64,000 bases of DNA from contig JAUYKA010000008.1 of NCBI GenBank assembly GCA_030698495.1, positions 14,895-78,894 on the forward strand. The letters are read 5' to 3'. The position numbers were made by a program, and so were the translations under genes. The DNA comes from a bacterium (GTDB lineage: Bacteria > Patescibacteriota > Andersenbacteria > UBA10190). The notes under the pieces are model-generated. The model was not told the origin of the DNA, searched no databases, and saw only the letters and a list, made by a program, of their open reading frames with translations. This document shows, one piece after another, positions 19,826 through 48,157 of the stretch. The first letter of the stretch is position 1, and each line of letters begins with the position of its first letter.

Positions 19826-19828
19826 GGT

Positions 19829-21097: not shown

Positions 21098-21098
21098 A

Positions 21099-24636: not shown

Positions 24637-24643
24637 ATTAGCC

Positions 24644-25207: not shown

Positions 25208-25219
25208 ATTAATGTCTCT

Positions 25220-26131: not shown

Positions 26132-26170
26132 ATTTTGAGTCTACTGCCAAAATATGTACGATGAAAGGAT

Positions 26171-27732: not shown

Positions 27733-27734
27733 GA

Positions 27735-28718
27735 TCAAAGAAAAATTTTACTTAGCTGGTACAGGCGATATTTTAGCAATAATTTTTTTTGGACGAGCTT
27801 GGGTGGCGTCAGATGTTTTTGTTTGGTTGTTTGATTAGCAAATGACAAATAATCTTGAGAGACTTTTTGTATGGAATGGTCTGCTTTTTTATAGATATTT
27901 TTATCTAAGTTTTTGGATACTCTATTAATAATTTCCAAAATATCTTTCTGTCCCTTGAATAGTTCTCCTTGCGATCCGATTAGTTCTGGGTGTCCTCCGC
28001 TATTCAATGCAATGGCCGGAAGACCGCAAGAAAGTGCCTCTATCAGTGAATTTGAGCAGGGATCATTTTTTGAAGCAGTAATATACATATCGTGTTGTCG
28101 CAGAATATTAGCTAGTTCGTTAGAGTGAAGAGGTTTAATAATCTTAATATTTTTGAAGTCTACTGTTGTGTTGCCAACAAAAGTCATGTCGTATTTGCTG
28201 AAATCTAGATTATTGTCTAAATATTGATATATTTGAAATCCTTTTCTGGGATTGCCCGACCAGGAAGTGGTAATGATTTTTATTTTATGGTTGCTATGAT
28301 GATTGTTGCTTGGGAAGAATATTCTAGAATCAGCGGCATTGCTAATGATTGTGCTGTTTTGGTGGGTGATATTAAAAATCTTCTCATTTTCTTTCTTGGA
28401 CCACTTTGACTGAAAAACTATTCCGTCTGCATATAATGTAATGAATTCTTTTATCAAATAATCGATATATTTATCCTTACCTCTTACTAAAGATATGGGG
28501 CCGTCTATTCGCGCAATGACTGGTTTTTGGTTGTTGGCGATCTTATTGATTAGTTCTGGTATTGCCGTTGGGTTAACGTTGGCTATCAGGCAATCTGCTG
28601 CTTGGTGGGTGTCAGAATATGCATTTTGGTTTTCTAACTCTTTTTTTAGTGCTTTGAGAAATTGATTTCCCCCACCATAAGGACCGTCAATCAAAGAGTT
28701 TAATATGTGGAACTTCAT
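27735..28718 (-). CDS. GT4-family (GT-B) glycosyltransferase.
   Basis: The C-terminus has ITASKNDPCSNSLIEALSCGLPAIALNSGGHPELI, the E-x7-E-like GT4 motif. Confidence 0.75.
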   Translation of the reverse strand: MKFHILNSLIDGPYGGGNQFLKALKKELENQNAYSDTHQAADCLIANVNPTAIPELINKIANNQKPVIARIDGPISLVRGKDKYIDYLIKEFITLYADGIVFQSKWSKKENEKIFNITHQNSTIISNAADSRIFFPSNNHHSNHKIKIITTSWSGNPRKGFQIYQYLDNNLDFSKYDMTFVGNTTVDFKNIKIIKPLHSNELANILRQHDMYITASKNDPCSNSLIEALSCGLPAIALNSGGHPELIGSQGELFKGQKDILEIINRVSKNLDKNIYKKADHSIQKVSQDYLSFANQTTKQKHLTPPKLVQKKLLLKYRLYQLSKIFL

Positions 28719-29818
28719 GTGTGTTGTTTGAGGAGGGGTTTATATAGTTCGTTATAGTATCTTTGGGCAATAAGAGGCCAGTCAAATTTTTTAGCTTGAG
28801 TATAAGCTTGTTCCGTTAGCTGCTTATTTAGTTCTTTGCTGCTTATTAATGTGGATATTTTTTGTGACAGCGTCTTTACGTCCTCACTATTTGCCAATAG
28901 TGCTGTCTTTTTATCATTGGCTATATCTGGTACCATGCCCACTTCTGTACTGATTACCGGTATTTTACTGGCCCATGCTTCCAATAATGCCAGTGGGCCA
29001 CCCTCTTCTCGGGATGTTATCAGATAAGCGTCTAGCGCGGAGTAATAGGGAGCTACTTCGTTAATGTCTGGGAGATATCCAAGATGAGTAAAGGGGACGC
29101 CGGCTTTTTTAAGGTTGGTTTTTACATAGCCCCTCGCTGGACCAATTAGCAGTACGTGTAGGGGGTGGCTTTTGTTAACCTCTTTCACTGTTTTTATAAA
29201 GATGTCCGGACCCTTTTCTAGTTTTGGTTGCAGGCCGTCTTGCCAGCCGATACCGTCTTTTTGGAACGATCCAATAACGAAAGAATTTTTAGGAATGTTT
29301 AATTTTTGTCTAATGGAACTTTTTTTGCCACTGTCGGCTGGTTTAAAAGTTTGAAGGTCAACTCCTAAAGGAATTACCTTGACTTTATTTTCAGGAATGC
29401 CTTTGTCGATTATTTTCTTTTTGGTATTTTCGCAAGAAGTATGGATATAGAAAACTTGGTTGGAAATTCGTACTAAGAAGAAAGGGTTACTTTTTTGGGG
29501 CAGTAAGTGAAAGATGGAGAGGACATATTTATTATTGAGTGTTAATTTCTTGGGCTGTTTACCCCGGAAGATGGTGTGCAGTGAGCCAAAATGAACCAAG
29601 CTGTTTCGAAGAGCAAAGTTTGTAGATGTTATGGTTGCTTTTATATCAGTTGAAGTATTTATGTTTTTGATGACTTGAGATCCAACATACCTTATTGCCC
29701 ATGATTTTGCTTCGACAACGTAGGACAGATCTCTCGGACTAATAATGTTATTAGCGAGACTCTTGGCAATGAAAGTTTTACTTTTCCAGTTTCTGAACAA
29801 CTGCATATAGTTCCCCAA
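28715..29818 (-). CDS. GT4-family glycosyltransferase.
   Basis: ITSREEGGPLALLEAWASKIPVISTEVGMVPDI. Confidence 0.8.
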   Translation of the reverse strand: MGNYMQLFRNWKSKTFIAKSLANNIISPRDLSYVVEAKSWAIRYVGSQVIKNINTSTDIKATITSTNFALRNSLVHFGSLHTIFRGKQPKKLTLNNKYVLSIFHLLPQKSNPFFLVRISNQVFYIHTSCENTKKKIIDKGIPENKVKVIPLGVDLQTFKPADSGKKSSIRQKLNIPKNSFVIGSFQKDGIGWQDGLQPKLEKGPDIFIKTVKEVNKSHPLHVLLIGPARGYVKTNLKKAGVPFTHLGYLPDINEVAPYYSALDAYLITSREEGGPLALLEAWASKIPVISTEVGMVPDIANDKKTALLANSEDVKTLSQKISTLISSKELNKQLTEQAYTQAKKFDWPLIAQRYYNELYKPLLKQHT

Positions 29819-30452
29819 AATTTATATGATAATGTAGTATTTTTAGGTTGGCTTCTTTAATCTCTTTAAAGAAGGAATGTAGATCGTATTCAATGTAGTG
29901 GGTGTCGTCTAGACGATAGGCAAATCCTTCATTCTTTTTATAGACACTAATCCAATCTCTGGTAATCATTGGTACTCTTATAAGTATGCGGGGTGCTATG
30001 CCGGATAGTTTTTTTAGAAAATCGACTCGGTTTTTTATATGCTCTAAGACGTTGGATAAAATTATTACATCGAATTTCTGGTTAAAGCGGTAGGTGGTAG
30101 CGTCTCCTACTATATAGCTTAAGTTAGTTGGAGTTTTATTTTCATCGGCTAATTGTATGTTTTTATTTGAGATATCTATGCCGACAACTTCTTTAGCTTT
30201 TTGACTGACGCTTCTCGCGACTTCTCCTTTCCCGCAACCAATATCTAGTACTGTGTTGTTTGCATCTATATTATCCAAGAAGAATTTGTGATAATTGATA
30301 ATTGTGTGTTTGGGGTGGGTACCGCTACTTGAGGCAAAAAATGAGATGAGCTGATAGGAGGCGTTGTGTATTGTGACTAGCAACCTAGTAATAGGGCGAT
30401 TTAGGCGCGATTTCCTAAGAATTATTAGCAGATAGTGGATTATTTGGCGCAT
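29778..30452 (-). CDS. Class I SAM-dependent methyltransferase.
   Basis: It has VLDIGCGKGEV, VGIDIS and FDVIILSNVLEHI. Confidence 0.75.
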   Translation of the reverse strand: MRQIIHYLLIILRKSRLNRPITRLLVTIHNASYQLISFFASSSGTHPKHTIINYHKFFLDNIDANNTVLDIGCGKGEVARSVSQKAKEVVGIDISNKNIQLADENKTPTNLSYIVGDATTYRFNQKFDVIILSNVLEHIKNRVDFLKKLSGIAPRILIRVPMITRDWISVYKKNEGFAYRLDDTHYIEYDLHSFFKEIKEANLKILHYHINFGELYAVVQKLEK

Positions 30453-30456
30453 CAGA

Positions 30457-31464
30457 TTATTCTAAGAGTGATTCAAATACTTTTAAATATCTAGTAGACA
30501 TTTTATTTAAAGCAAAGTCCGAGATGGCCTTATTTCTGGCTGCAGACTTGTAGGTTGGCAGGCCGTTGATTATTCTATGCATGTTTTTTGCTAATTCTTC
30601 CAAGTTGTAAGCTCTTCTTTTATAGAAGGCGTTAGAATTAATTCTGATTAATTCGGCTTCGTGACCACTACTAACAAGCTCTGGCATAGCTCCGTCGCCA
30701 ATTCCTGCTATGGGAAGCCCGCAGGACAGTGCTTCAACTACATTATTCGGGCAGGGAGGGTTTAGGTGTGTGAAAACAAAAACATCAGCTGCTCTTAAGT
30801 AGGCGGGAAGCTGCTTGTTTTCCACTATACCTACAAAATCTATGTTTTTTTCGCCTCTGTATTTAGAGGGAATATTTTTTGTTGATCTTGTGAAATTTCC
30901 CACTACTACCAGCTTACTGTTCGGGTTATATTTTTTTAGGTATGTCTTAAAAGCTGCGATAACGGGATTAATTTGATCTAGGCGTCTGAAGCGAGAGGCA
31001 GTTATGAAAACATTTTGGTTGGGGGTTGCTCTAAGTTGTTTGGTGTTTCCAATATTAGAAAAAAAGTCCGTATCTACTCCGTTATAAATTATGGTATGTG
31101 GCCGTGAGGTTTTTCCTAGAAATTTGTTGCAACAGTATAGGGAGAATTTGCTTTGATAAATTGTGTAATCAGTAAAAAAATGATGGATGATAAATAAGGG
31201 AGTGTTATATAGGGGGTATAACCAACTGGCAGTAGTTGTGGGGTAATACACGCCATCTAAGCGCTGCACTATTGGTTTGCCTCGCTTTTTTGCGTCAAAT
31301 AAGAATTTCCAGGGAGCGGTTGGCGAGGCTAGTAAAATATCATAGTTAGTTTCATAAGAAAAAATAACTGTATGTCCTAATTTTTGCAGTCCGGTTTGCA
31401 GTTTCTGGGCAAAAGACGAGGTGCCTCCGGTTGATCTTAATTTAATTGGTAAAAAGATAACCAT
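30457..31464 (-). CDS. GT4-family glycosyltransferase.
   Basis: THLNPPCPNNVVEALSCGLPIAGIGDGAMPELV. Confidence 0.8.
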   Translation of the reverse strand: MVIFLPIKLRSTGGTSSFAQKLQTGLQKLGHTVIFSYETNYDILLASPTAPWKFLFDAKKRGKPIVQRLDGVYYPTTTASWLYPLYNTPLFIIHHFFTDYTIYQSKFSLYCCNKFLGKTSRPHTIIYNGVDTDFFSNIGNTKQLRATPNQNVFITASRFRRLDQINPVIAAFKTYLKKYNPNSKLVVVGNFTRSTKNIPSKYRGEKNIDFVGIVENKQLPAYLRAADVFVFTHLNPPCPNNVVEALSCGLPIAGIGDGAMPELVSSGHEAELIRINSNAFYKRRAYNLEELAKNMHRIINGLPTYKSAARNKAISDFALNKMSTRYLKVFESLLE

Positions 31465-32260
31465 ATTTTCTGAATAATATTCTTAGCCGGTTCGGTACGA
31501 GCAACAGACTGATTGGTTGAATAAGATATAAATAATATTTTACCGGCGCCTGATATTTTTTCAGGTATTTAGTTGTAGTAGCTATTTGTTGGATGACCTG
31601 TTGTCTTTTGTTGGTGTTAGATTGGATTGTTCGATGGCAGAGCACATCTTCTAGGTTGGCCATTTGGGTTAGTGGTAAGAGCCTAAACCATAAATCACGA
31701 TCTTGTCCGTAGCGAATTTTTTCGTCGTATTTACTTGATTTATCTAATAGTGTTTTTTTTACAATAACGCAACTATGCCCAAAAGGGTTTTGTTTAAATA
31801 TATGTTTTTTGATTTCTCTGTTTGATAAAGGGACGAACACGTTTCGTTTGTGGTTTGAGTAGTGGTTGGTGTAGCAACTGCCTAATAATCCGTGGTCCGG
31901 GTGGTTGGTTAGCCAAGATATTTGTTTCGATAGCTTATTGGGTTCCCACCAATCATCTGCGTCAAGACGAGCGATATATTGACCCTTGGTTATCTCAATA
32001 CCTTTATTAAGAGATTTAGTCAGACCTATATTTTGTGTATTAGTTAGACAGCGAATGATTGGTGGATATTTCTTTTGCCATTGTTTTAACATCTTAGGAG
32101 TATTATCCGTTGAGGCATCGTCAATACAAACAATCTCAAGGTTTTGGTAGGTTTGGTTTATAACGCTTTGCAGGCAGCGATTAAGATGGGCGCTGCCGTT
32201 GTAGATTGATATTACTACCGATACTAACGGTTCAGTATTGAATGAAATAAATCGTTCCAT
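31442..32260 (-). CDS. GT2-family glycosyltransferase.
   Basis: It has VSVVISIYNGSAHLNRCLQSVINQTY, EIVCIDDASTDNT and ARLDADDWWEP (DxD). Confidence 0.85.
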   Translation of the reverse strand: MERFISFNTEPLVSVVISIYNGSAHLNRCLQSVINQTYQNLEIVCIDDASTDNTPKMLKQWQKKYPPIIRCLTNTQNIGLTKSLNKGIEITKGQYIARLDADDWWEPNKLSKQISWLTNHPDHGLLGSCYTNHYSNHKRNVFVPLSNREIKKHIFKQNPFGHSCVIVKKTLLDKSSKYDEKIRYGQDRDLWFRLLPLTQMANLEDVLCHRTIQSNTNKRQQVIQQIATTTKYLKKYQAPVKYYLYLIQPISLLLVPNRLRILFRKYGYLFTN

Positions 32261-33303
32261 AAGTTGGATACTTTATTTAAAGAATGGTTGTTCTCGGTAT
32301 ATGTTTTGGCATTCTGGGCTAATCTTTCTCTTAAGATGTGGTTGCTGATAAGAGCATCAAGTTGACTGATGAGTGATGTTAAATTCCTGTTTTTATACAG
32401 TAAACCGTTTTCTTGGTTATGAATAAGTTCTTGGTTGGCTTTGATGTCAGAAGTCAGACAGGGGAGACCCATATTCATGGCTTCAAGTAGCGCATTACTC
32501 ATACCCTCCCCCTCGGTTGGTAAAACAAAAATATCAGCGGCAGCAAGATGCGACCAAACCGATTCTTGTTGTCCTAGAAAGCGAATGTGCTGGCGGGAAG
32601 CGTATTCGCTTATCTGTCGACGAAGGGGCTTTTCTAGTGGTCCCTTACCCATAAGTAGAAGCCTAATGTTTGGGTGTTGTTTGTGAAGGTTATTAAATGC
32701 TTTTAATAAAAGGGAGTGTCCTTTGCCTTTTTTAAAGTTGGCGACGCAGATAATGTTAAGACTATTGTCTGTTGGGACTAGGTTGTTCTTATTGGTAGGA
32801 GGGGTAATGACGGTATTGGGGATGATGAATATCTTCGAAGGAGAAATTTTCCAGGAATTAATTAGTTCTGTTTTCCTGGCGCGGGTGTGTACCGTAAAAA
32901 AATCTGCTAACCGCTTGGTGGTTTTGTTAAGAGAAGCCAGAAAAGGATGGTGCACCAGGCTGCTTCTCTGGCTTGATACGTAAGCAACGTTTTTATTGTG
33001 GCAGGCAAAGCGCGAGATTACATCCGCTTCAACCAGATAGCCGACCACAATATCGGGTTTGAGTTTATTAATTGTTTTTGTAATGGATAAGAAAATCCCG
33101 GGACTGAACGGAAGTTTGCGATTGAGATATGTGACCGGTATGTCCTTGTCGACCAGAGCTTTGCCGGTTAAGGCCGGTCCTCTAAGACAAACAACACGGT
33201 TGTCGTATGATGACTGTAGGGTTGGTAGCAATAAAAGCAGCTGTTTTTCTGCGCCGCCGATACCGAGGTCGGAAATAATATGTAGGATGATAGGCCTTTT
33301 CAT
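32224..33303 (-). CDS. GT4-family glycosyltransferase.
   Basis: It has ILHIISDLGIGGAEKQ and VLPTEGEGMSNALLEAMNMGLPCLTSDIKANQELI. Confidence 0.85.
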   Translation of the reverse strand: MKRPIILHIISDLGIGGAEKQLLLLLPTLQSSYDNRVVCLRGPALTGKALVDKDIPVTYLNRKLPFSPGIFLSITKTINKLKPDIVVGYLVEADVISRFACHNKNVAYVSSQRSSLVHHPFLASLNKTTKRLADFFTVHTRARKTELINSWKISPSKIFIIPNTVITPPTNKNNLVPTDNSLNIICVANFKKGKGHSLLLKAFNNLHKQHPNIRLLLMGKGPLEKPLRRQISEYASRQHIRFLGQQESVWSHLAAADIFVLPTEGEGMSNALLEAMNMGLPCLTSDIKANQELIHNQENGLLYKNRNLTSLISQLDALISNHILRERLAQNAKTYTENNHSLNKVSNLWNDLFHSILNR

Positions 33304-33305
33304 AT

Positions 33306-34532
33306 TTAAACAGTAAGGCTATTAAGTATTTCTTGGTATTTTTGTATTGATTTATCCCAATTGAATTTTTCTATATTTTCTTGATAGGCCTTGATTCCCA
33401 TTTGTTTACGAAGTTCCGGGTGAGTTACTAAAAAGTTTATTTTTTCAGACATAATTTGAGGGCTGTGGGTTGGAATGAGGATGCCGGATTCACTGGAGGT
33501 AATAATTTCTTTTGTTCCGCCGACATCAGTTGCTATGATTGCTTTTTGGCAGAGCGCAGCTTCGATAACGGAAGTAGGCAGACCTTCCGTGTAGCTGGGA
33601 TTAATGAAAATATCAGAAGCTTTGATTATGGAGATTGTTTGTTCCCACGGCTGCGAGTCCAGAAAAGTAATCCTATCGGCCAGATCAAGGTTGGCAGCTT
33701 GCCGGCGCAGAGCGGATAGTTGGCTGCCTTGGCCTATTATAAAACAGTGGAAGTTTATTAACTGAAGATGATCGAGAGCGTTGAGGAGATCGGTTACTCC
33801 TTTGCCATCGATGAGGCGGCCGGCGTAGGTGATTATAGGGGTAGCAGGCAGCAGGTAGTAGGTAGTATGCAGGTTGACTGGTTGTATCTTCTGTATTTGC
33901 TGAATATCAACGCCGCGATAGATGACTGTGACCGGTTTTTGGAGCACGAATTTTTTGACAAAAGCGGCGGAGGCGTGGGAATTGGCAACGACGGCGTCGG
34001 CGGAACGCAATATGAGCCGGCCAAGCGTGAGATCGTAAAATTTGGCGATGAAGCTAAGTAGGGGGTTATGTAGGTGCACGTAATCGGAGCCGTGCTCGAT
34101 ATGTAGCCAAGGCATGCGGTGTGTTTTAGCATAAAACCCGGCCATTATAGAAGCGAAGAAGAAACGGGTTCTTGAAAGTACTATAGTTTGTAGTGAGTAG
34201 TTTGTGGTGAGTAGGGACTTTTTAACTAAGTGCCATTGTTCCCAAAAAAGAGGCTGCCAGAATTTTGGAACTGGATAATTAGGTATTATTTCCCAGGCGG
34301 GGAACCGAAAGATGTGTACTCCTTCTGATTTTTCCGTGAGTTTTGCATTTGGTGTGATGAGTGGAGTGAAAACAGTGATTTTATAGCCGCGCCTAGTCAT
34401 TTCCTGATCAAATTGCTGGGCATGGGTTTCAAGCCCCCCCACGTGGGGCGGATAAAGGGGGGAAAAGACAAGTATATGCCGCTGAATTTGGTTTTCAGGG
34501 GGAGTATGTGTATGATGTATAGTTGGTTTCAT
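33306..34532 (-). CDS. GT4-family glycosyltransferase. I chose an internal ATG start at 34532; the longest ORF extends to 34823.
   Basis: It has RHILVFSPLYPPHVGGLETH and INPSYTEGLPTSVIEAALCQKAIIATDVGGTKEII. The 5-prime extension to 34823 is hydrophilic, non-GT-like and overlaps the divergent gene. Confidence 0.75.
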   Translation of the reverse strand: MKPTIHHTHTPPENQIQRHILVFSPLYPPHVGGLETHAQQFDQEMTRRGYKITVFTPLITPNAKLTEKSEGVHIFRFPAWEIIPNYPVPKFWQPLFWEQWHLVKKSLLTTNYSLQTIVLSRTRFFFASIMAGFYAKTHRMPWLHIEHGSDYVHLHNPLLSFIAKFYDLTLGRLILRSADAVVANSHASAAFVKKFVLQKPVTVIYRGVDIQQIQKIQPVNLHTTYYLLPATPIITYAGRLIDGKGVTDLLNALDHLQLINFHCFIIGQGSQLSALRRQAANLDLADRITFLDSQPWEQTISIIKASDIFINPSYTEGLPTSVIEAALCQKAIIATDVGGTKEIITSSESGILIPTHSPQIMSEKINFLVTHPELRKQMGIKAYQENIEKFNWDKSIQKYQEILNSLTV

Positions 34533-35258
34533 ATGGCTATAAATATTCAGAAAAAGATTTGTATAATAGTACCGGCTTATAACGAGGAGGGGTTTTTGGC
34601 CGAGGTGGTGGGTGATATCAGAAAATATTGCCCAGAGGCCCAAATAGTGGTTGTGAATGATGCCTCTAGTGATAGTACTAAACTGGTTGCGTGGTCGCAA
34701 AGAGTGCCCGTTTTGGACTTGCCTACCAATTTGGGTATTGGCGGGGCTATGCAGACGGGGTTTTTGTATGCGGTGCGTAACGGTTTTGACGTTGCGATGC
34801 AGGTAGACGCCGACGGGCAACATGATCCTCGGTTCATACCTGTTTTATTGGAAGCGCTGGGGGAACGCGGGGCCGACATGGTAATCGGAAGTCGTTTTTT
34901 GGAGCGAGTCGGCTACCGGGCCTCGTTTATGAGGTTGTTTGGGATCAGATTTTTTGCCTGGTTGATTGGTATGATGACCAATAGGCGTGTTTATGACGCT
35001 ACCTCCGGATACCGTGCCTATAATAAAGAAGCTTTAAATTTCGTGGCAAAATATTATCCGTCTGATTTTCCGGAGCCGGAATCGATTGTCATTATGCTCC
35101 GTAACGGGTTCAAAATTAAAGAAGTGCCGGTCGTGATGAAACATCGCCAAGCAGGAACTTCCTCGGTGCGTCCTTTAAAGGGAACATATTTTGTGGTATC
35201 TAATGCTGTGGCGATTATAATCAGTGCTTTTAAAAGAAGGTTACGTTCAAGTTTATGA
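34533..35258 (+). CDS. GtrB/CsbB-like GT2 polyprenol-phosphate sugar transferase. I chose a start at 34533; the longest ORF starts at 34413.
   Basis: It has ICIIVPAYNEEGFL, VVVNDASSDST, MQVDADGQHDP and MVIGSRF, the classic dolichol/undecaprenol-phosphate glycosyltransferase signature. Confidence 0.85.
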   Translation: MAINIQKKICIIVPAYNEEGFLAEVVGDIRKYCPEAQIVVVNDASSDSTKLVAWSQRVPVLDLPTNLGIGGAMQTGFLYAVRNGFDVAMQVDADGQHDPRFIPVLLEALGERGADMVIGSRFLERVGYRASFMRLFGIRFFAWLIGMMTNRRVYDATSGYRAYNKEALNFVAKYYPSDFPEPESIVIMLRNGFKIKEVPVVMKHRQAGTSSVRPLKGTYFVVSNAVAIIISAFKRRLRSSL

Positions 35259-35641
35259 TTGATTTTTTGGTTTTCAGCGGTTCTATTCCGGCTCGTACAC
35301 AAACGTTTGCTATTGTTGTTAGCGGGGGTTTATTTTTATTGATTGTGTATTTAATACGTAGCGGTCGCCTGAAAGAGGGTTATTCGCTGATATGGTTTTT
35401 TATAGCGTTAGCTACGGTTGCCTTGTCGGTTTTTAGTGGACTGCTTGATGTTTTTGCCAGGTTTATCGGAATTGCTTATGTACCGGCAGCTCTGTTTTTA
35501 GTGTTGTTGGGCGGAGTGTATTTATTGGGTATTCATTTTTCTTTGCTGCTCAACAGGTATGATAAACGCATCCGACAATTGGCCCAAGAGCATGCTATAC
35601 TGAAGGAACAAATCGCTAAACTGCTTGATAAAAAGTTATGA
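35255..35641 (+). CDS. Small 3-4 TM membrane protein with a C-terminal amphipathic tail (GtrA-role or DUF2304-like). It is a likely partner of the GtrB-like enzyme.
   Basis: 128 aa, translationally coupled to the upstream GT2 by an ATGA overlap. It has hydrophobic helices then KRIRQLAQEHAILKEQIAKLL. Confidence 0.5.
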   Translation: MIDFLVFSGSIPARTQTFAIVVSGGLFLLIVYLIRSGRLKEGYSLIWFFIALATVALSVFSGLLDVFARFIGIAYVPAALFLVLLGGVYLLGIHFSLLLNRYDKRIRQLAQEHAILKEQIAKLLDKKL

Positions 35642-36624
35642 AAAAATTTCTCATAACCGGGGGGGCGGGGTTTATCGGGTCTCATCTTGCAGAGTATCTG
35701 TTAGCTAAGGGCGCGGGAGTTAGGGTTGTAGATAATTTGTCTACCGGGTCGGCAGACAATATGCGGTCTTTTTCGGGTAATCCGTCTTTTGAATTTACTA
35801 TCGGGGATGTTGTTGACAAAGAACTGATGACAAAGGAGATGTCGGGGGTGGATGGTGTGTTTCACCTAGCCGCTTCTGTGGGGGTAAAGCATATTATGGA
35901 GAACTTGGTGGCATCTATCAGAAATAATGTATTGGGCACGGAGGTGGTATTGGAGACGGCGAGTGATTTAGGGGTAAGGATTCTTTTAACGTCAACTTCG
36001 GAAGTATATGGAAAAATTAGTGATCAGCCATCGGCGGAAAGCGATGATTTTCGGATGGGTGAGCCGTTGAAAAGCCGTTGGTCTTATGCTTGTTCCAAGG
36101 CGTTGGATGAATATATGGCTTTTGCCTATTATCATGAGCGTAACTTGCCAGTTACGGTCACCAGATTGTTTAATACTGTCGGGCCAAGACAAACAAGTGC
36201 TTACGGAATGGTTATTCCGACATTTGTAAAACAAGCTGTAGCCGGGGAACCGATAACAATTCATGGTGACGGGAAGCAGTCTCGCTGCTTTGTGTATGTT
36301 AAGGATGTTGTATGGGCCTTGTATAATTTAATGTTTTCCGACGCGGCAGTGGGGGAAATATACAATATTGGCAGTACCGAAAAAATAACAATTGATGAGT
36401 TAGCGGACAGAATAATCAAAATAACCGGAAGCGCCAGCATTAAGAAATATTTTCCTTATGATCATGTTTATAAAGTTGGTTTTGACGATGCTTACAGTAG
36501 ACAGCCTAAAATTGATAAGGTGCAACAAGCGATAGGGTTTATGCCGCGGCATAAACTTGATGACATCATTAAATTGGTTTTAGAAAACATTGCGAAGCCT
36601 GAAAAAGCGGTGGTGAGTAATTAG
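35638..36624 (+). CDS. NAD-dependent sugar-nucleotide epimerase/dehydratase (UXS/ArnA-decarboxylase-like SDR).
   Basis: It has ITGGAGFIGSHL, TSTSEVYGK, the catalytic YACSK, and RLFNTVGPRQ. Confidence 0.8.
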   Translation: MKKFLITGGAGFIGSHLAEYLLAKGAGVRVVDNLSTGSADNMRSFSGNPSFEFTIGDVVDKELMTKEMSGVDGVFHLAASVGVKHIMENLVASIRNNVLGTEVVLETASDLGVRILLTSTSEVYGKISDQPSAESDDFRMGEPLKSRWSYACSKALDEYMAFAYYHERNLPVTVTRLFNTVGPRQTSAYGMVIPTFVKQAVAGEPITIHGDGKQSRCFVYVKDVVWALYNLMFSDAAVGEIYNIGSTEKITIDELADRIIKITGSASIKKYFPYDHVYKVGFDDAYSRQPKIDKVQQAIGFMPRHKLDDIIKLVLENIAKPEKAVVSN

Positions 36625-38480
36625 TTTTTAAAACTAGCAGACATTTGAGTTTTCCATTGCTTGGCGAATTGTCCATTAAGAGAGATAAGTTGCGTTAAGG
36701 TGCCGTGTTCTTTAATTTCGCCATGTTCCAGATAAATGACTTGACTCGCATTTTTTATAGTGGACAGGCGATGGGCTATAAGTAATAGTGTCTTATTCCG
36801 AAAAACTGTATTCATAGTGTTTTGAATATATCTTTCAGTGGCGGAATCCAGGGCACTGGTGGCTTCGTCAAGTAGTATTATTTCTGCTTTTTTGATTAGT
36901 GCCCTGGCGATAGCCACTCTTTGTTTTTCTCCGCCGGATAATTGGACGCCTCGGTCGCCAATAACAGTATCCAGGCCTTTTTCCAAACGGTTAATGAGCT
37001 CGTTCAGTTGTACTTGAGATATTATGTGTTGTAGTTGTTGGTCGCTGACTTCTTTTTGGCTGTAGGTAAGATTGTTTTTTAAGGAATCGTGTAATAAAAT
37101 CGGGTCTTGATCAACGATAGCAATATGCTGTCTTAATGATTTAAAATCTAAATCCCTAATATCGGTGTTATCAAAAAAAATGGTTCGGGGCGGACACTCG
37201 TAAAAGCGCATTAAGAGATTAATAATAGTTGATTTCCCGCTGCCGGAGGGTCCTACTAAAGCAGTAAGTTGTCCCTTAGGGACATTGAAGCTGACATGGC
37301 GCAATACCGGTTCTCTTCCTTCGTAAGTAAAGCTTAAATTTGATATTCTGATTTTGTTTTGAAGGCCGGTGAAAATTGTACTGCCTTCTCGCACTATATA
37401 TTTTCCTTTATTGTTAAAAGTGCCGATAATTTCCAGAAGAGGCGGAGTCATTTCTGAAATTGCAACCCAAATACTGTTAAACACTTTAAACAAAGGAACT
37501 GTTCGGGAGGCCACATAAAGAAAGATTATAATTCTGGTTAAATCCAGGCCGTTGTCACGGTGGATGGAGAAGGCGATGTAAGCTACTACAAAAAATAAGG
37601 TGAGGACGGTGATTAAGCGAGGAATCAGGATAGTAAAGTATCCCAGGGCTTCGGCCTTGAGTTGAACTTTTCTGAACTTTTCATTCATTTGAGCATAATG
37701 TTTTTTTGATTGTTCTTCTTGGGAGTAACTCCAGACCAGGGGCAAAGAAGACAAAATATTAAAAGATTCTCGGCTAAGATCCATGGTGACTTCTTTGGCT
37801 TGCCGCCAAAGAGTGTTAACTTTTTTCATGATTTGGCGGGAAGTTAGGTACAGAAGAGGAAATATCAGTAAAACCATTATCATTAGACGCCAGGATAGCC
37901 AAGTCATAACAGCCAGGTATCCGATCAGTTGGGTTAGGCTAGCCAGGTTGTTCTGGGATATTCTAACTAACTGTACGCTGCTGTTGGTGTATTCCAGGAC
38001 TTTTTTGATGGTGCCGTGGCTTGTTTTATCAAAAAATAATTTACCGAAGGAAAAATAGCGGTTATATACAAAAGTATGGAGATGCCATTGGTATTTTCCC
38101 TGAAGATAACGACCATAGTAGGTGTAGATAAAAGTGACAATTATTCCCAATAAATTAGTCAGAAATATTGTACCGGCCAGTATAAAAAATATGAGGGCGG
38201 GACTAATTTTGATATTAGTGTTGCGGAAGAAAAAACCCGCTGTTTTTGAAAGTGGTTCCGGCAGTTGAGCTGCCGTGAAGCCCGTTCCCGTGATGCCTTG
38301 TGCCAAAGGAACCAGTAGGCCGATACCCAAAACATCGAAAGTAGCAACGGCGATGGACAGAAGAATTAAGATAACAATCTGATACGGTTTGACATGCATT
38401 ACGTTCAGAAGGCGCCGAAGGAGCTTAATCTGTTGTCTTCGCTTATCAGAAAGCCAAAATTTGTTATTTGGGGTAAGCAT
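36621..38480 (-). CDS. ABC exporter with fused permease and ATPase (MsbA/PglK-like). It is a candidate lipid-linked oligosaccharide or glycolipid flippase.
   Basis: The N-terminus has 6 TM. It has Walker A GPSGSGKST, the signature LSGGEKQRVAIARAL and Walker B ILLDEATSALD. Confidence 0.9.
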   Translation of the reverse strand: MLTPNNKFWLSDKRRQQIKLLRRLLNVMHVKPYQIVILILLSIAVATFDVLGIGLLVPLAQGITGTGFTAAQLPEPLSKTAGFFFRNTNIKISPALIFFILAGTIFLTNLLGIIVTFIYTYYGRYLQGKYQWHLHTFVYNRYFSFGKLFFDKTSHGTIKKVLEYTNSSVQLVRISQNNLASLTQLIGYLAVMTWLSWRLMIMVLLIFPLLYLTSRQIMKKVNTLWRQAKEVTMDLSRESFNILSSLPLVWSYSQEEQSKKHYAQMNEKFRKVQLKAEALGYFTILIPRLITVLTLFFVVAYIAFSIHRDNGLDLTRIIIFLYVASRTVPLFKVFNSIWVAISEMTPPLLEIIGTFNNKGKYIVREGSTIFTGLQNKIRISNLSFTYEGREPVLRHVSFNVPKGQLTALVGPSGSGKSTIINLLMRFYECPPRTIFFDNTDIRDLDFKSLRQHIAIVDQDPILLHDSLKNNLTYSQKEVSDQQLQHIISQVQLNELINRLEKGLDTVIGDRGVQLSGGEKQRVAIARALIKKAEIILLDEATSALDSATERYIQNTMNTVFRNKTLLLIAHRLSTIKNASQVIYLEHGEIKEHGTLTQLISLNGQFAKQWKTQMSASFKN

Positions 38481-38552
38481 AACTACATATAATAACCTAT
38501 CATACAGGGAGCTGCCTATGCTAATATGGCGACATATTAAAAGTCGGTTTTT

Positions 38553-39659
38553 ATGGCTTTAATTAATAAAAAGATAAAGATTTTACACCAATATCATAAC
38601 AATGTTTTTGATATGGTAAAGGTTCTTGAAGAAAACAATGAAGTGGTTTTTTTATCTTATAGGACCAGTCGTTTGGTGCCAGGGATAAGGAATAACGAGC
38701 CGAGCACATTTAGGTTTATATGGCCGATGTACAATCCTTTTAAATTATCAAAATTACTGGGTAAAGATACTGATATATTGGTTTTAAAACATATAAACGA
38801 TCCAATTAACTTTTTTCCGTACATTTTGTCTTGGATTAAAGGAGTAAAATGCGTGGTGGCTGTTCAGCGACTTACTCATAAAAATTTTTGGGGCTACCGG
38901 TTTCTTTTTCGTTTGGGCGTACGCTTGTTGTGTCTGCTTGGAGTTAGAATTATGGCCGTAACGCAAGATAGTTATGAAGAGTTGTCCAAAACCCGCCTAA
39001 AGACTGTTTATATTCCAGCTTGTATCAAGGCGAGCTGCTGGGAATCGGTTAATGACCAGACGTCCCACTTAAGCGCTAACCAACTGTCAATTATCACCGT
39101 TGCGAAATATCAGAAGCGCAAAAACATCCCCCTACTGGTGAAGGCTGTAGCTGAATTAGTTAAAAAATATCCACTTATGGGGTTCCGGTTAGTAATAGTT
39201 GGTGATCTTTCCATTAGAAAGAAATCTCAAGATGAGTTTAGACGAGTTAAAAATTTAGTGAAGCAATATTGTCTTGAGGATATAATTATTCTTCGCTCTA
39301 ATGTTTCCCACAAAGAAATGCCCGCTATTTATAATCAGAATAATATTTTTGTATTGCCGGCCGGTAGTGAGCCGTTAGGTTATGCCGTGCTGGAAGCAAT
39401 GGCTAGCGGTAAACCGGTTATTTGCTCGGACCAAGTTGGGGCGGTTTCGTATATAGAGGAGGGAAAAAATGGTTATATATGTGAGGCCGGATCATTAAGC
39501 TCTCTCGTTCAAAGCCTGGAAAAGTTTATTAGAAACAATAATGAGATTAATATTCAAAAAATCGAAGAGTTTGGAAGATATGGTAAAACTTTAGTGGAAA
39601 GAAATCACAGCGCGGGTGTATTTTTAAATAAGTTTGAAGAATTAGTATGTATGAAATAA
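38553..39659 (+). CDS. GT4-family glycosyltransferase.
   Basis: VLPAGSEPLGYAVLEAMASGKPVICSDQVGAVSYIEEGKNGYI. Confidence 0.85.
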   Translation: MALINKKIKILHQYHNNVFDMVKVLEENNEVVFLSYRTSRLVPGIRNNEPSTFRFIWPMYNPFKLSKLLGKDTDILVLKHINDPINFFPYILSWIKGVKCVVAVQRLTHKNFWGYRFLFRLGVRLLCLLGVRIMAVTQDSYEELSKTRLKTVYIPACIKASCWESVNDQTSHLSANQLSIITVAKYQKRKNIPLLVKAVAELVKKYPLMGFRLVIVGDLSIRKKSQDEFRRVKNLVKQYCLEDIIILRSNVSHKEMPAIYNQNNIFVLPAGSEPLGYAVLEAMASGKPVICSDQVGAVSYIEEGKNGYICEAGSLSSLVQSLEKFIRNNNEINIQKIEEFGRYGKTLVERNHSAGVFLNKFEELVCMK

Positions 39660-41080
39660 TGAGAAGAAGAGACGTATCCTGGTTATTGGTGGTGGTCACA
39701 GCTGTTTTTGTGATTGTGCTTTGTTGGCAATATCCTTTGTCGGTTTCGTTTCCTGTCGGTGGAGATGTTATGCGCTATATAGCCAGAGCTAATGCGGTAA
39801 AGGACGCCTTGCAATTTTCTATACCAGACGGGTTCAGTCTTCTAATAAGAAATTCATCATACCCGGCTTCTATTTTGGTAGTTCTGGTGGCCGGTTTGGT
39901 GCCGATAGGGTGGCCCGAGAAGTGGCTATTGTTGATGTTTCTGGCTCAAATTGCTTGTGCGGGATCGCTTTATTATGTAGTCGGAAAAATTACCGGCAAC
40001 AGAATAACGGCTTGTTTAGCGGCCGCAGCCTGGGCGATTGTGGGTTTAAGTTTTACCCGCCATATTGAAGACGGGACATTTGCCCAACTTATGAGTCTGC
40101 CGGCTTTTGTGTTTTTTCTGGGGCAGTTGATGAATAAAAAGTATATCACGGCGATTTTTTGGGTGATGTTGTCGTTCTTGTTCCATCCGGTTACCGGCTT
40201 GGTCGCCGGGTTGGTTGCTGTTCTTTATCTGGTGACTAACCTTGATAATTTTGTAAGCTCGAGCAAAAAAAAGGTTGTTGGTTTGGTGTTGTTGGTGATT
40301 TCTTTGGGGGTAGCGATCTATTTTTTGAAAAAATATGATCATTTATTTTTATTGGACTATTCAAGTGATAATGGCATATCGTTGACTGATTTACTTAACT
40401 CTTCTTTTGGTACTTTGTTGGTCATGACTCCCTTGGGAATGATAGTGTTTTTGAGAAAATATAAGCGAGAGGGACAGGCCCTGGTTGTTGCTACGTTTAT
40501 ACTATTTCTCTTTATTTTTCAGAACCAGCTGGTGGGGGAGAGTATGTTTATTAACCGCATAAATTCTTATCCGGCCATTTTTGTTTCCATATTCTCGGCG
40601 ATTGCGATAGCTGAAGTGGTGAGAACCATTAGGGTTGCCAATATTCTTTTGCGGGTGCTTCTGGTCTTAGTGTTTTTTAGTATGGGTGTTAGCGTTTGGT
40701 CGCAGCAAGGAAATATTTATCGGTATTATGATGATCCGGGAAATTATGCCAGAGTGCACCCTGATGAACTGGCTGCTATTTACTGGTTACGCGATAATAC
40801 TGCTGCTGATGACGGAATTGTTTCTACCGTTGCTAACAGACATAGTGAGTGGATACCAATATTAAGCCAAAGACAGTGGGTCGGTTTGTATGCTGACGAC
40901 GTATTATTTACCGCCGATAATTTTTTGTTTAAGAAGATTAGCGGGGAAAAGGGCTATGATTACGCAGTGGTTTTTAAGAACCGTGAGGAGAGAGTTGATT
41001 TGATTAAAGGAGGGGTTTCGGAATCGTCTATTGTGTATCAGAATGACGCCGCGGAAATAATTAAAATATCACAGCTATGA
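39647..41080 (+). CDS. Polytopic membrane protein of unknown function, a GT-C-like candidate.
   Basis: 477 aa with 10-12 TM helices, then a roughly 120-aa soluble C-terminus. I recognise no motif. Confidence 0.5.
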   Translation: MYEIMRRRDVSWLLVVVTAVFVIVLCWQYPLSVSFPVGGDVMRYIARANAVKDALQFSIPDGFSLLIRNSSYPASILVVLVAGLVPIGWPEKWLLLMFLAQIACAGSLYYVVGKITGNRITACLAAAAWAIVGLSFTRHIEDGTFAQLMSLPAFVFFLGQLMNKKYITAIFWVMLSFLFHPVTGLVAGLVAVLYLVTNLDNFVSSSKKKVVGLVLLVISLGVAIYFLKKYDHLFLLDYSSDNGISLTDLLNSSFGTLLVMTPLGMIVFLRKYKREGQALVVATFILFLFIFQNQLVGESMFINRINSYPAIFVSIFSAIAIAEVVRTIRVANILLRVLLVLVFFSMGVSVWSQQGNIYRYYDDPGNYARVHPDELAAIYWLRDNTAADDGIVSTVANRHSEWIPILSQRQWVGLYADDVLFTADNFLFKKISGEKGYDYAVVFKNREERVDLIKGGVSESSIVYQNDAAEIIKISQL

Positions 41081-41463
41081 AAAATAACCGGAAAACATCC
41101 CTGGCGTTACTGGCTATTTTGGGTGTTGCTATTAGTGTTAATTTTCACGTACCAGTGGGGATAGTCATACTGGCGAGCACACTGTTGTACGTCGTGTATA
41201 TTGTGTCGGTCCATGATTATCAGATAATGGTGCGGGTATTTCCTTATGGGGCAGTAATTGGCCTGGCATATTTTATCAGAATACCGGTATTGGAAAACCA
41301 ACCTATTCTGCCAAGGGTGCTGACGGTGATTGCTTTATGGTCTATGGTTTTTTTATCTATTGCTTGGTTTACGGAATGGATTTTGCGAAGCAAGAACAAA
41401 ACCACCCTGCAGCGTGAGGATAGCAAGAGAGAGCCACATAATAATTTGGGAAAAAGCAATTAG
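41077..41463 (+). CDS. Small 4-TM membrane protein.
   Basis: 128 aa with an ATGA overlap to the upstream membrane gene. It overlaps the convergent 41353..42027 ORF by 111 nt. Confidence 0.4.
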   Translation: MKNNRKTSLALLAILGVAISVNFHVPVGIVILASTLLYVVYIVSVHDYQIMVRVFPYGAVIGLAYFIRIPVLENQPILPRVLTVIALWSMVFLSIAWFTEWILRSKNKTTLQREDSKREPHNNLGKSN

Positions 41464-42027
41464 TTTTTCTTTGCTGTTTAGCCTTTCAAGTAATAGCTCT
41501 AATCGTGTATTAGATTGGGTGAGTATCAGGCTGATGTTGCCCTGTTTAATGTTGTTGGCGATTTGGTAATGGCCTTGAGGAAAGGCATTGGCGTCTTTTT
41601 CAATAAAGACCGCGGGGGCTAAAGAAGATTCATCTGCGGGGATATGGTTGGCGTCTATGGTGATTGTTAGTACGCCATCCACAGGCGTTGGTGTGTCTAG
41701 CGGGAAATTGAATTGGTGGGTACCTTGGTTGGTGGTGACTGTCCAGGTCTGTAGTAAAGCACTGTTGTGAAGAAGGCTTACCGCGAAAGGCGTGCCTTGG
41801 TTTCGGGAGTAGATGGGTATGGTAAGACCGGACAAGCGATATAATCGGTTGAGGGTGATGTTTTCACTATAGACAAATTGAGCATATGCCGGATCGGCTA
41901 GTTCCGGTTCACTGTGTGCTTTGATATTATATAAAACGGTTTCTTGATTGGAGGATAAATAATAATAGGCCCCGGTCAGCCAGGCGGCAATAATAAGTGT
42001 TGAAATAATGGTTGTTTTAGTGCGCAT
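41353..42027 (-). CDS. Membrane-anchored hypothetical protein with an N-terminal signal anchor and a beta-rich ectodomain.
   Basis: 224 aa with an N-terminal TM IISTLIIAAWLTGAYYYL. Its 3-prime end overlaps the convergent small ORF, so one of the two may be shorter or spurious. Confidence 0.4.
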   Translation of the reverse strand: MRTKTTIISTLIIAAWLTGAYYYLSSNQETVLYNIKAHSEPELADPAYAQFVYSENITLNRLYRLSGLTIPIYSRNQGTPFAVSLLHNSALLQTWTVTTNQGTHQFNFPLDTPTPVDGVLTITIDANHIPADESSLAPAVFIEKDANAFPQGHYQIANNIKQGNISLILTQSNTRLELLLERLNSKEKLIAFSQIIMWLSLAILTLQGGFVLASQNPFRKPSNR

Positions 42028-42108
42028 ATTGTGATTATATCAGTCAAAGTTGAATAACAGGAGTAATACAGATAGGATAAACAATATTTACTTATTATAG
42101 GTTATATT

Positions 42109-43065
42109 ATGGCAAAGTATTTAGTAACGGGCGGAGCGGGCTTTATCGGATCACACTTAGTGCACCGTTTGGTGGCCGAGGGGAACGAAGTGATAGCGCT
42201 CGATAATCTTACCGCCGGTAAAATAGAAAATATTAAGGCAGTCGCAAGCCGGGTGACGTTTGTAAAGGGAGATATTAGACAAATTGATTTACTACAGAAA
42301 CTGATGGGGGGTGTTGAGGTGGTTTTGCACACGGCGGCGTTAAGATCCGTTCCTCTTTCAGTAGATAATCCGTCGGCAGTGAACGATGTAAATATCGGTG
42401 GAACTTTAAATATACTGTTGGCGGCCAGAGACAATGGGGTGAGGCGGGTGGTGATGTCCTCGTCTTCGTCGGTTTACGGGCAGATTGAAGCGGAGAAACA
42501 GGTGGAAACCTTGCCGACTCATCCGGAATCACCTTATGCGCTCACAAAACTGGCGGGCGAGCAGTATTGTCGTCTGTTCGGCGAGTTGTATGGGCTGGAT
42601 GCTATATGCTTGCGCTATTTTAATGTGTTTGGGCATTGGCAGGATCCAAATTCAAAGTATTCGGCGGTGATACCTATTTTTGTAAGCGCCCTGTTACGAG
42701 GACAGATGCCGACGATACATTGGGACGGCCAGCAGAGCCGTGATTTTACTTTTGTCGATAATGTGGTTGACGCTAATTTATGCGCGGCGCAGGCGCCAAT
42801 AAAAAGCCAGGGAAATGCTTATAATATCGCTAATGGCGGAACGACTTCCATAAATGAATTATTGGCGCAGATTCAGGAATTACTGGGGACGAATATTGTT
42901 CCCAGATATATGCCGAAAAGGGCGGGCGATATCGGCAGGACACGTGCTGATATTGAGCGGGCGAGGCGAGAATTAAACTGGGAGCCTAAGGTTTCGTTTA
43001 ATGAGGGGTTGGCGCGTTCGCTGGAATGGTATAAAGAGAACGCGGTAGAGCCGGTAGCGGTTTAG
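42109..43065 (+). CDS. WbpP/TviC/WbgU-family UDP-N-acetylhexosamine (uronic acid) 4-epimerase.
   Basis: It has VTGGAGFIGSHL, SSSSVYGQ, SPYALTKLAGEQY (the YxxxK triad), LRYFNVFGHWQDPNSKYSAVIP and NDVNIGGTLNIL. These align with WbpP motifs. Confidence 0.8.
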   Translation: MAKYLVTGGAGFIGSHLVHRLVAEGNEVIALDNLTAGKIENIKAVASRVTFVKGDIRQIDLLQKLMGGVEVVLHTAALRSVPLSVDNPSAVNDVNIGGTLNILLAARDNGVRRVVMSSSSSVYGQIEAEKQVETLPTHPESPYALTKLAGEQYCRLFGELYGLDAICLRYFNVFGHWQDPNSKYSAVIPIFVSALLRGQMPTIHWDGQQSRDFTFVDNVVDANLCAAQAPIKSQGNAYNIANGGTTSINELLAQIQELLGTNIVPRYMPKRAGDIGRTRADIERARRELNWEPKVSFNEGLARSLEWYKENAVEPVAV

Positions 43066-43089
43066 GACAAGCAACTAGCCAGAGAAGGT

Positions 43090-45249: not shown

Positions 45250-45262
45250 TGAAATTTGCAAT

Positions 45263-47517: not shown

Positions 47518-47550
47518 ATTATTTATCTATCATGATCACATATGGGTTGT

Positions 47551-47576
47551 ATTACCACATATCGATATGTGGTAAT
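47551..47576. promoter_or_regulatory. Perfect 26-bp palindrome attaccacatatcgatatgtggtaat, 9 bp upstream of the TrpR-like gene start. It is a candidate operator.
   Basis: The sequence equals its own reverse complement. It lies in the promoter region of the 47585 gene. Confidence 0.5.
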
Positions 47577-47584
47577 ATTTTGTT

Positions 47585-48043: not shown

Positions 48044-48054
48044 TTGTGTGTATA

Positions 48055-48078
48055 GTTCCACATATCGATATGTGGTAA
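48055..48078. promoter_or_regulatory. Second copy of the palindrome, with the core ccacatatcgatatgtgg perfect over 18 bp, 14 bp downstream of the TrpR-like stop.
   Basis: The core at 48058..48075 is identical to the core of the upstream palindrome. The flanks differ slightly. Confidence 0.45.
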
Positions 48079-48107
48079 TAATGATAGTTAGTGTTTTTAA
48101 AAAGAGA

Positions 48108-48142: not shown

Positions 48143-48157
48143 TAATTTGAAGTCCCT

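Follow-up and report, generated by a model that had tools for sequence, protein, structure and literature searches.

A predicted two-subunit polyprenyl-phosphate sugar synthase of the GacI/GacJ type, with candidate GT-C partners, in Candidatus Andersenbacteria

Introduction

What does a small membrane protein contribute when its gene is joined, stop codon to start codon, to that of a glycosyltransferase predicted to load a sugar onto a lipid carrier, and which enzymes would use the product? The question is raised by two overlapping genes in a 64,000-nucleotide stretch of DNA (referred to below as the window; positions 14,895 to 78,894 of contig JAUYKA010000008.1, assembly GCA_030698495.1). The host is a member of Candidatus Andersenbacteria, within the Patescibacteria/Parcubacteria group, and an identical copy of the stretch is recorded in the NCBI metagenome-assembled genome (MAG) GCA_034376345.1. 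The first gene encodes a family 2 glycosyltransferase (GT2) and the second a 128-residue membrane protein. The original prediction, drawn from the letters alone, took the GT2 for a polyprenol-phosphate sugar synthase of the DPM/GtrB type, gave its neighbor the role of a GtrA-like flippase or of a DUF2304 protein, and placed both, together with membrane-bound glycosyltransferases of the C-fold type (GT-C), in a three-component extracytoplasmic glycosylation module. From the analysis described below we propose that the two genes very probably encode a two-subunit polyprenyl-phosphate sugar synthase of the type represented by GacI/GacJ and PpgS/Rv3632. To simplify the presentation, genes are named by the first coordinate of their open reading frame (ORF) in the window.

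In Streptococcus pyogenes gacJ lies directly after gacI, and GacJ is a DUF2304 protein. GacI synthesises GlcNAc-P-undecaprenol and is membrane-associated and active without GacJ; GacJ is recovered together with GacI on purification and increases its catalytic efficiency, and natural GacI-DUF2304 fusions exist. The lipid is thought to be flipped by the Wzx-type GacK, and the GT-C enzyme GacL transfers GlcNAc to polyrhamnose. In Mycobacterium tuberculosis PpgS (Rv3631), assisted by the DUF2304 protein Rv3632, makes polyprenyl-P-GalNAc; the UDP-GalNAc comes from an epimerase (Rv3634c), and the GT-C enzyme Rv3779 transfers the sugar.

Results

The GT2 protein and its DUF2304 partner

The GT2 protein 34533, which begins with MAINIQKKICIIVPAYNEE, matches Glycos_transf_2 in a Pfam scan (E 2.6e-22). 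The NCBIfam models that rank highest are PpgS (92.2 bits), AglJ (76) and a haloarchaeal Dol-P-hexose transferase (67), then PgfS and ArnC, all of them polyprenyl- or dolichyl-phosphate monosaccharide synthases. The closest structures in the PDB are the Pyrococcus furiosus DPMS 5mlz (E 2.4e-13), the Synechocystis GtrB 5ekp and ArnC, and the acidic motifs NDAS, VDADGQHDP and IGSRF of the window protein align with 5mlz and 5ekp. Judged by these matches, which bear out the DPM/GtrB assignment made originally, the protein belongs to the Dpm1/GtrB/ArnC-type GT2 synthases, and from its published homologs it would be expected to form a polyprenyl-phosphate sugar. No transmembrane (TM) helix is found in it by a Kyte-Doolittle scan; one stretch, SFMRLFGIRFFAWLIGMMT, is hydrophobic and amphipathic, and basic residues come after a conserved hydrophobic tail at the C-terminus. 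It thus fits the short form represented by GacI and PpgS (about 230-240 residues, no TM helices at the C-terminus, and a same-strand DUF2304 gene next to it), and by analogy with these enzymes the lack of TM helices is normal and is no argument against a synthase.

The GT2 stop codon and the start codon of the partner gene, 35255, overlap as ATGA at 35255-35258, in keeping with the translational coupling that had been proposed, and a further ATGA at 35638-35641 joins the partner's stop to the start of a gene for a short-chain dehydrogenase/reductase (SDR). Because both junctions are of this kind, we regard GT2, DUF2304 and SDR as a tightly coupled operon. The partner protein matches PF10066 (DUF2304) at E 2.5e-21 (76.4 bits against a cut-off of 25.5, over profile positions 2-105 of 106), which is its sole Pfam family at E<=0.01; GtrA (PF04138) is not matched in that scan, and a GtrA identity was rejected on this ground. 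Of the two roles offered for this protein in the original prediction the DUF2304-type one is retained and that of flippase is not, since GacJ and Rv3632 stimulate a synthase and the roles are not interchangeable. No second DUF2304 gene was found anywhere in the window.

The protein has three hydrophobic segments, then a charged and basic C-terminal helix. A basic loop, RSGRLKEG, follows TM1, so that by the positive-inside rule the N-terminus is outside and the C-terminus inside. Among 76 homologs from many phyla the best conserved positions are L39, Y43, W47 (invariant), G72, position 100, L109 and Q111, with Y43, W47 and Q111 foremost; most fall either within the basic loop that leads into TM2 or within the C-terminal helix. 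The prediction puts both of these on the cytoplasmic side of the membrane, the side of the GT2.

Conservation of the pair

An alignment of the window protein with four close orthologs served to search for relatives of the GT2 in a single genome from each species. At least 570 were found, and the pairing was counted in the best 80 of these, at 42-53% identity, whose hosts belong to Clostridia, Streptococcus, Coriobacteriia, Actinomycetes, Bacteroidota, Omnitrophota, Chloroflexota, Planctomycetes, 'Deltaproteobacteria', Chlorobiota and others. Using a hidden Markov model built from close DUF2304 homologs, we find a DUF2304 ORF adjoining the GT2 gene in 76 of the 80 loci, nearly always directly downstream and on the same strand. 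As the pair is kept both in close relatives and in these distant loci, its occurrence in the window is not due to chance. Across at least 10 phyla, pairing of the GacI/GacJ type is close to universal in this GT2 subfamily, which supports the view that DUF2304 is an obligate subunit of the synthase.

The neighborhoods of the distant pairs also contain membrane-bound transferases. Across 49 distant loci, 71 polytopic proteins are encoded no more than 3 kb from the pair, and 36 of them match DUF2142 (16), PMT_2 (15), PMT (2), GT87 (2) or STT3 (1); DUF2142 is counted here with the GT-C families, as we take it to be placed in the Pfam GT-C clan. Some 8-10 of the 71 are Wzx/MATE-like. In Streptococcus equinus (locus L020) the pair is situated in an rgp/gac-type rhamnan cluster with RgpF, an ABC-2 transporter pair and a sulfatase-like protein, and is followed by a 426-residue polytopic protein and a DUF2142 protein. 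In another relative (L006:4281..5699) a reverse transcriptase (RVT_1) and bAvd, parts of a diversity-generating retroelement, come directly after DUF2304.

Links between the pair and GT-C genes

Contigs from close relatives show which genes follow the operon elsewhere: L002 and L003 are from Andersenbacteria, L005 is a metagenome contig and L008 a MAG contig. L002 and L003 have a divergent GT4 gene and then GT2-DUF2304-SDR-SDR and a 947-residue protein that is 45% identical over its full length to 4690, a YfhO-like protein, the ortholog of which ends the operon in L003. In L005 the order is GT2-DUF2304-(50-residue ORF)-SDR, then directly an ortholog of 43090 (46% identity) and, after it, the GT4 genes known from the window. 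In L008 the 43090 ortholog (49% identity) comes after GT2-DUF2304-SDR and a 264-residue ORF on the opposite strand, and is itself followed by orthologs of 45263, 46408, 48930 and 50316 (55-58%; 56-58% identity for the two GT4 genes of 45263..47517) in the order seen in the window. In three Patescibacteria lineages, then, an ortholog of 43090 or 4690 stands on the same strand after GT2-DUF2304-SDR, either directly or one to two genes on. Compared with L008 the window has an extra segment at approximately 36.6-43.0 kb, comprising an ABC exporter, a GT4, 39647, 41353 and a second SDR, between the operon and the GT-C gene. Because the two are collinear apart from this segment, the product of 43111..45249 is most likely the cognate transferase, and that of 4690..7539 would be an alternative or additional user. 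The two GT4 enzymes encoded after 43090 probably build the acceptor glycan in the cytoplasm.

Database families gave no indication of what 43090 might be: even at E<=10 there is no match in Pfam or NCBIfam for 2274, 11210, 39647 or 43090, and the 43090 family profile has no match among PDB sequences. The true start of this ORF is probably 43111, and an AlphaFold2 (AF2) model of the protein from that position has a pLDDT of 92.9 and a pTM of 0.91. All Foldseek matches of the model with E<=0.001 are GT-C enzymes (AftD at 1.4e-7, PglB, STT3, EmbB), with AftA at 1.3e-3, and its C-terminal beta-sandwich matches carbohydrate-binding module (CBM) domains of the CBM35, CBM36 and CBM6 families. Aligned by hhalign with a YfhO-type profile, the 43090 profile scores 99.6% probability (E 1.6e-24), and D40 of the motif G38-G39-D40, which is invariant after TM1 in the 43090 family, falls on the invariant D46 of the YfhO-type (4690 family) profile. 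The same profile finds no match in the single 4690 sequence; profile-profile comparison alone succeeded. On the modelled fold and this profile alignment we confidently assign 43111..45249 as a GT-C enzyme and a remote relative of YfhO. The 172 homologs found are nearly all unnamed or 'hypothetical'.

The YfhO identity of 4690 is visible mostly through its relatives. Pfam YfhO (PF09586) scores 27.9 bits on the window protein, against a cut-off of 28.5 and in the C-terminal part only, and is matched by all 52 aligned relatives (21-48% identity), at best with E 8e-33; there are 27,057 representative relatives. The adjacent 2274 resembles 4690 by blastp (E 3.6e-14) and the YfhO-type profile A5 by hhalign (99.65% probability, E 4.7e-25). 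Beyond it, residues 297-406 and 411-807 of 2274..4712 are matched by 311..985 (frame 2) and 1152..2273 (frame 3), respectively; these are the parts of one YfhO-like paralog that has been split or frameshifted, with an unusual gap of approximately 170 nt between them.

The remaining two candidates are less clear. For 39647, an ortholog of which lies approximately 2 kb upstream of the pair in L002, we found 3 homologs, and its AF2 model is weak (pLDDT 59, pTM 0.59), although its ten best Foldseek matches are all STT3, ArnT and PglB, after which the scores fall steeply to noise. The NCBI label is 'EpsG family', which a Pfam scan without an EpsG match neither confirms nor excludes; as the weak model resembles GT-C enzymes and not ligases, we tentatively describe the protein as GT-C-like. 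The second, 11210..13066, is a protein of 618 residues with approximately 12 TM segments, divergent from 9472..11151 (minus strand), and gives no Pfam, NCBIfam or hhalign signal; nor do the YfhO-like and 43090 profiles match the single sequences of 11210 or 39647 in hhalign. The divergent genes 9472..11151 and 11210..13066 could be another synthase/transferase pair. Among the GT-C enzymes put forward at the outset, 4690 and 2274 (as divergent members of the YfhO superfamily) and 43090 (by fold) are therefore upheld, with 39647 tentative and 11210 without a family signal. Fold, profile and synteny together support the link of GT-C partners to the pair.

Table 1. Genes of the window discussed in the text, with the basis of each assignment
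Feature	Coordinates	Strand	Basis
GT2, Dpm1/GacI/PpgS-like, predicted polyprenyl-phosphate sugar synthase, 241 aa	34533..35258	+	Pfam, NCBIfam, PDB matches
DUF2304 (GacJ/Rv3632-type) small membrane subunit, 128 aa	35255..35641	+	Pfam PF10066, TM scan
Extended SDR, UXS/ArnA-type UDP-glucuronate decarboxylase-like, candidate nucleotide-sugar supplier	35638..36624	+	Pfam Epimerase, GDP_Man_Dehyd
GT4, divergent neighbor of the GT2	33306..34532	-	Pfam Glycos_transf_1, Glyco_transf_4
Predicted GT-C fold glycosyltransferase, remote YfhO relative, 712 aa	43111..45249 (ORF 43090..45249)	+	AF2, Foldseek, hhalign
Two GT4 genes downstream of the 43111 GT-C, collinear with L008	45263..47517	+	Pfam
WbpP/WbgU-type UDP-HexNAc 4-epimerase-like SDR, directly upstream of the 43111 GT-C	42109..43065	+	PDB matches
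Divergent YfhO-family GT-C, 949 aa, alternative or second acceptor-side transferase	4690..7539	-	Pfam YfhO, relatives
YfhO-like paralog, 812 aa	2274..4712	-	blastp, hhalign
Polytopic protein, tentatively GT-C-like	39659..41080 (ORF 39647..41080)	+	Weak AF2 model, Foldseek
Second Dpm1-type polyprenyl-phosphate sugar synthase candidate, 235 aa, without DUF2304 partner	57236..57943	-	Pfam GT2, E 5.2e-32
Third Dpm1/PpgS-like GT2 domain (N-terminal half), fused to a methyltransferase	9472..11151	-	Pfam GT2 and Methyltransf_23
Half-size ABC exporter (TMD-NBD), convergent with the operon (4-nt overlap), speculative flippase candidate	36621..38480	-	Pfam ABC_membrane, ABC_tran

Nucleotide-sugar genes and the divergent GT4

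The best PDB match of the SDR encoded by the third gene of the operon is human UXS1 (E 4e-52), and the two have the motifs STSEVYG and Q-x-R-[AC]-F in common; the next-best match, PelX, which we take to be a UDP-GlcNAc 4-epimerase, shows SSAAVYG and QTRDF instead. The gene is publicly annotated as 'GDP-mannose 4,6-dehydratase', which, as its structural relatives are UDP-glucuronate decarboxylases, is probably a misannotation taken from a domain name. Orthologs (61-64% identity) follow DUF2304 in L002, L003, L005 and L008, and the operon GT2-DUF2304-UXS-like SDR is kept in at least three Patescibacteria lineages. A further SDR gene, 42109, encodes a protein whose PDB matches are WbpP (E 5e-69) and WbgU (E 2e-67), and in L002 and L003 an SDR resembling it is placed between the first SDR and the YfhO-like gene. 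From the resemblances of these SDRs, either a pentose (xylose) or a GalNAc-type sugar is plausible as the donor.

Orthologs of the divergent GT4 33306 (43-49% identity) are also found divergently beside the pair in L002, L005, L006 and L007; in L008 the ortholog lies further upstream with other genes in between. In the window the start codons of this GT4 (minus strand) and the GT2 (plus strand) abut as CATATG at 34530..34535, leaving zero intergenic space, and the start-to-start gap in relatives is 29-60 nt. Any promoters must therefore lie within coding sequence. A promoter and terminator scan of 33800..37200 gave counts no higher than those in shuffled sequence.

Other synthases and flippase candidates

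The second Dpm1-like synthase expected at 57236..57943 was found to match DPMS 5mlz at E 2.5e-34 over residues 6-230, more strongly than does 34533. The original count of two synthases was nevertheless too low; three are present, the N-terminal domain of 9472..11151 (best NCBIfam models AglJ and PpgS; PDB 5mlz at E 8e-8) having been overlooked. The three are 24-30% mutually identical, which is consistent with different donors. L008 has a second GT2-DUF2304 pair (L008:6171..8910, minus strand), in which a 238-residue GT2 similar to the N-terminal domain of 9472 is accompanied by a 128-residue DUF2304 protein (E 2.8e-13) and then a 552-residue polytopic protein; in the window, the counterpart of this GT2 lacks a DUF2304 partner and is joined to a methyltransferase. 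On the minus strand at 56040..57943, the end of the second Dpm1-like GT2 is overlapped by a TagF-type CDP-glycerol glycerophosphotransferase-like protein (Glyphos_transf, E 2.6e-10), and a polysaccharide deacetylase comes next. The TagF-like gene hints at a teichoic-acid-like polymer in a bacterium of the candidate phyla radiation (CPR).

Within the window, ORFs of 60-230 residues with at least 3 TM segments comprise, besides DUF2304, only 41077..41463 and a fragment of the split YfhO-like gene, and none is a GtrA. The former (plus strand, 128 residues, four TM segments) has an ATGA start overlap with the stop of 39647..41080 and overlaps 41353..42027 (minus strand) by approximately 110 nt. 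In L002, L088 and L089/L090 an ORF of 109-126 residues likewise comes next to the 39647 ortholog on its downstream side, with negligible sequence similarity. We considered 41077..41463 as a GtrA and rejected it, there being no Pfam match and no sequence conservation with the ORFs at this position in other contigs. Nor is the ABC exporter 36621 supported as a conserved flippase: the closest relatives L002-L008 lack it, and of the 76 distant loci only 4 have a close homolog nearby, at a distance of 1.6-7 kb from the pair. Of the three-component module first envisaged, the predicted synthase and the candidate GT-C enzymes are present and syntenic in relatives, and the flippase was not identified in the window.

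The wider island

The surroundings of these genes include further functions. A gene set like that for nonulosonic-acid (sialic, legionaminic or pseudaminic) biosynthesis is situated at 19829..24636; of its two NeuB homologs one also carries a CMP-sugar synthetase domain, and a DUF4910/M28-like protein and methyltransferases belong to the set as well. A small Trp-repressor-family protein is encoded at 47585..48043, and 59136..60179 encodes a pilin-like protein that combines a Laminin_G_3 domain with a hydrophobic helix at its N-terminus. The GC skew lies between +0.09 and +0.31 in every 2-kb bin of the window (1..64000), whatever the gene strand, which is unusually high for a bacterial chromosome.

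Discussion

Comparison with known systems

The window pair is like GacI/GacJ in having a short, TM-less Dpm1-like GT2, a DUF2304 gene next to it and a linked GT-C gene, and its GT2 is 46% identical to the one at the equivalent position of the streptococcal locus L020. It differs from GacI/GacJ in that no Wzx gene lies beside it, the linked GT-C is related to YfhO and not of the PMT_2 or DUF2142 kind, the operon includes a UXS-like SDR, so that the sugar may not be GlcNAc, and the host is one of the Patescibacteria (CPR) with no rhamnan genes in view. Its likeness to PpgS/Rv3632 lies in the DUF2304 partner, a GT-C encoded at a distance and an epimerase in the pathway (in the window, the WbpP-like SDR 42109), although the arabinogalactan acceptor does not exist in this organism. 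In the CsbB/GtcA/YfhO systems of Bacillus, Staphylococcus and Listeria teichoic acid, as in the window, a GT-A synthase feeds a YfhO-family GT-C; however, CsbB and GtrB have C-terminal TM helices of their own and a GtrA-family flippase, whereas the window has the short form with DUF2304 and no GtrA gene. In eukaryotic DPM1/DPM3 a TM-less GT2 is tethered and stabilised by a small membrane protein via a cytoplasmic C-terminal helix. This likeness is one of architecture only, and we claim no sequence relationship between DUF2304 and DPM3.

Proposed mechanism

By analogy with these systems we infer that the GT2, with a GT-A fold, would be held on the cytoplasmic face of the membrane by amphipathic helices and its short hydrophobic tail, and would move one sugar from a UDP-sugar onto undecaprenyl (polyprenyl) phosphate. 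Translational coupling would provide the three-TM DUF2304 protein in stoichiometric amounts, to bind the GT2 and raise its activity, and the co-transcribed UXS-like SDR would probably tailor the nucleotide sugar. A separate transporter would flip the lipid-linked sugar, which a YfhO-related GT-C, most likely 43111..45249, would then use outside to decorate a surface glycopolymer or protein.

A more specific version of this scheme, which we regard as speculative and unlikely, is that the operon makes a polyprenyl-phospho-pentose (xylose, from UDP-xylose), that the previously unclassified, YfhO-related 43090-type GT-C with its CBM-like domain uses it to decorate the CPR surface, and that the flippase is DUF2304 or the adjacent ABC exporter. 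To our knowledge, no polyprenyl-phospho-pentose donor derived from UDP-xylose has been characterised in bacteria.

Several observations weigh against a two-subunit synthase feeding a GT-C enzyme. The GT2 is under the equivalog cut-off of every NCBIfam model that it matches, and for PpgS (NF058614) it scores 92.2 bits against a cut-off of 370, so that it is a relative within the family and not an ortholog of the characterised enzyme. The DUF2304 family is without a solved structure; PDB searches with the single sequence and then with a 74-sequence profile gave no structure or detectable relative, and a sequence link from DUF2304 to the TM domains of DPMS or GtrB was rejected, as the hits were only noise (ABCB6 TM helices, coiled coils). 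No UDP-glucose dehydrogenase is seen among the window ORFs to feed the UXS-like SDR, and neither a GtrA nor a Wzx flippase is found in the window, where the sole MOP-family protein is the MurJ homolog 61317..62906. Finally, the window operon ends at the convergent ABC gene and the GT-C candidates are 6.5 kb and 27 kb away, so that the GT-C link rests on synteny in other genomes.

Alternative explanations

That the DUF2304 protein might itself be the flippase, an analog of GtrA which possibly also activates the synthase, is suggested by its small size and three TM segments, similar to GtrA proteins, by the lack of a GtrA or Wzx gene in or near the operon, in the window or in the closest relatives, and by the mycobacterial PpgS/Rv3632 pathway, whose flippase is still unidentified. 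We nevertheless consider this very unlikely. Pfam gives no GtrA match, and S. pyogenes needs the separate GacK, to which flipping is assigned, with GacJ acting on catalysis by GacI; in other phyla Wzx/MATE-like proteins occur among the polytopic neighbors of the pair, and the best conserved residues of DUF2304 are in the basic loop and the C-terminal helix, outside the membrane. It is also conceivable, though in our view highly improbable, that the GT2 is a cytoplasmic Leloir transferase acting on a lipid-pyrophosphate glycan or another acceptor, that DUF2304 is a mere tether and that the GT-C enzymes use other donors, for instance the product of 57236. Here the uniformity of the top NCBIfam and PDB matches, the polyprenyl-P-HexNAc made by both characterised DUF2304-paired GT2s and the recurrent proximity of the pair to GT-C genes argue for a synthase, notwithstanding the great breadth of the GT2 family, the sub-threshold NCBIfam scores, the closer match of 57236 to DPMS and a window rich in cytoplasmic GT4, GT2 and GT9 enzymes.

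A two-subunit synthase would still leave the acceptor to be considered, and this may be a protein (an S-layer protein, a pilin or a Ser/Thr-rich region of a membrane protein) in place of a cell-wall glycopolymer. Published work describes O-glycosylation that depends on a GT-C enzyme for membrane proteins of streptococci; the second-best NCBIfam match of the GT2, AglJ, is a model from S-layer N-glycosylation, PglB and STT3, both oligosaccharyltransferases, are among the best structural relatives of 43090, and the window encodes the pilin-like protein described above. However, the characterised YfhO enzymes act on teichoic acids, the CBM-like domain of 43090 suggests a glycan acceptor, and the conserved downstream genes encode GT4 enzymes typical of polymer assembly. 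A protein acceptor is thus possible but doubtful.

Implications

The GT2 and DUF2304 proteins probably constitute a system of an already known type, which supplies sugars for extracellular surface decoration, and no new mechanism is proposed. The finding gives the 43090-type family, until now annotated 'hypothetical', a GT-C/YfhO-like identity, predicted from fold and profile, and for Candidatus Andersenbacteria, about whose envelope chemistry almost nothing is known, it provides a surface-glycosylation pathway with a concrete and testable annotation.

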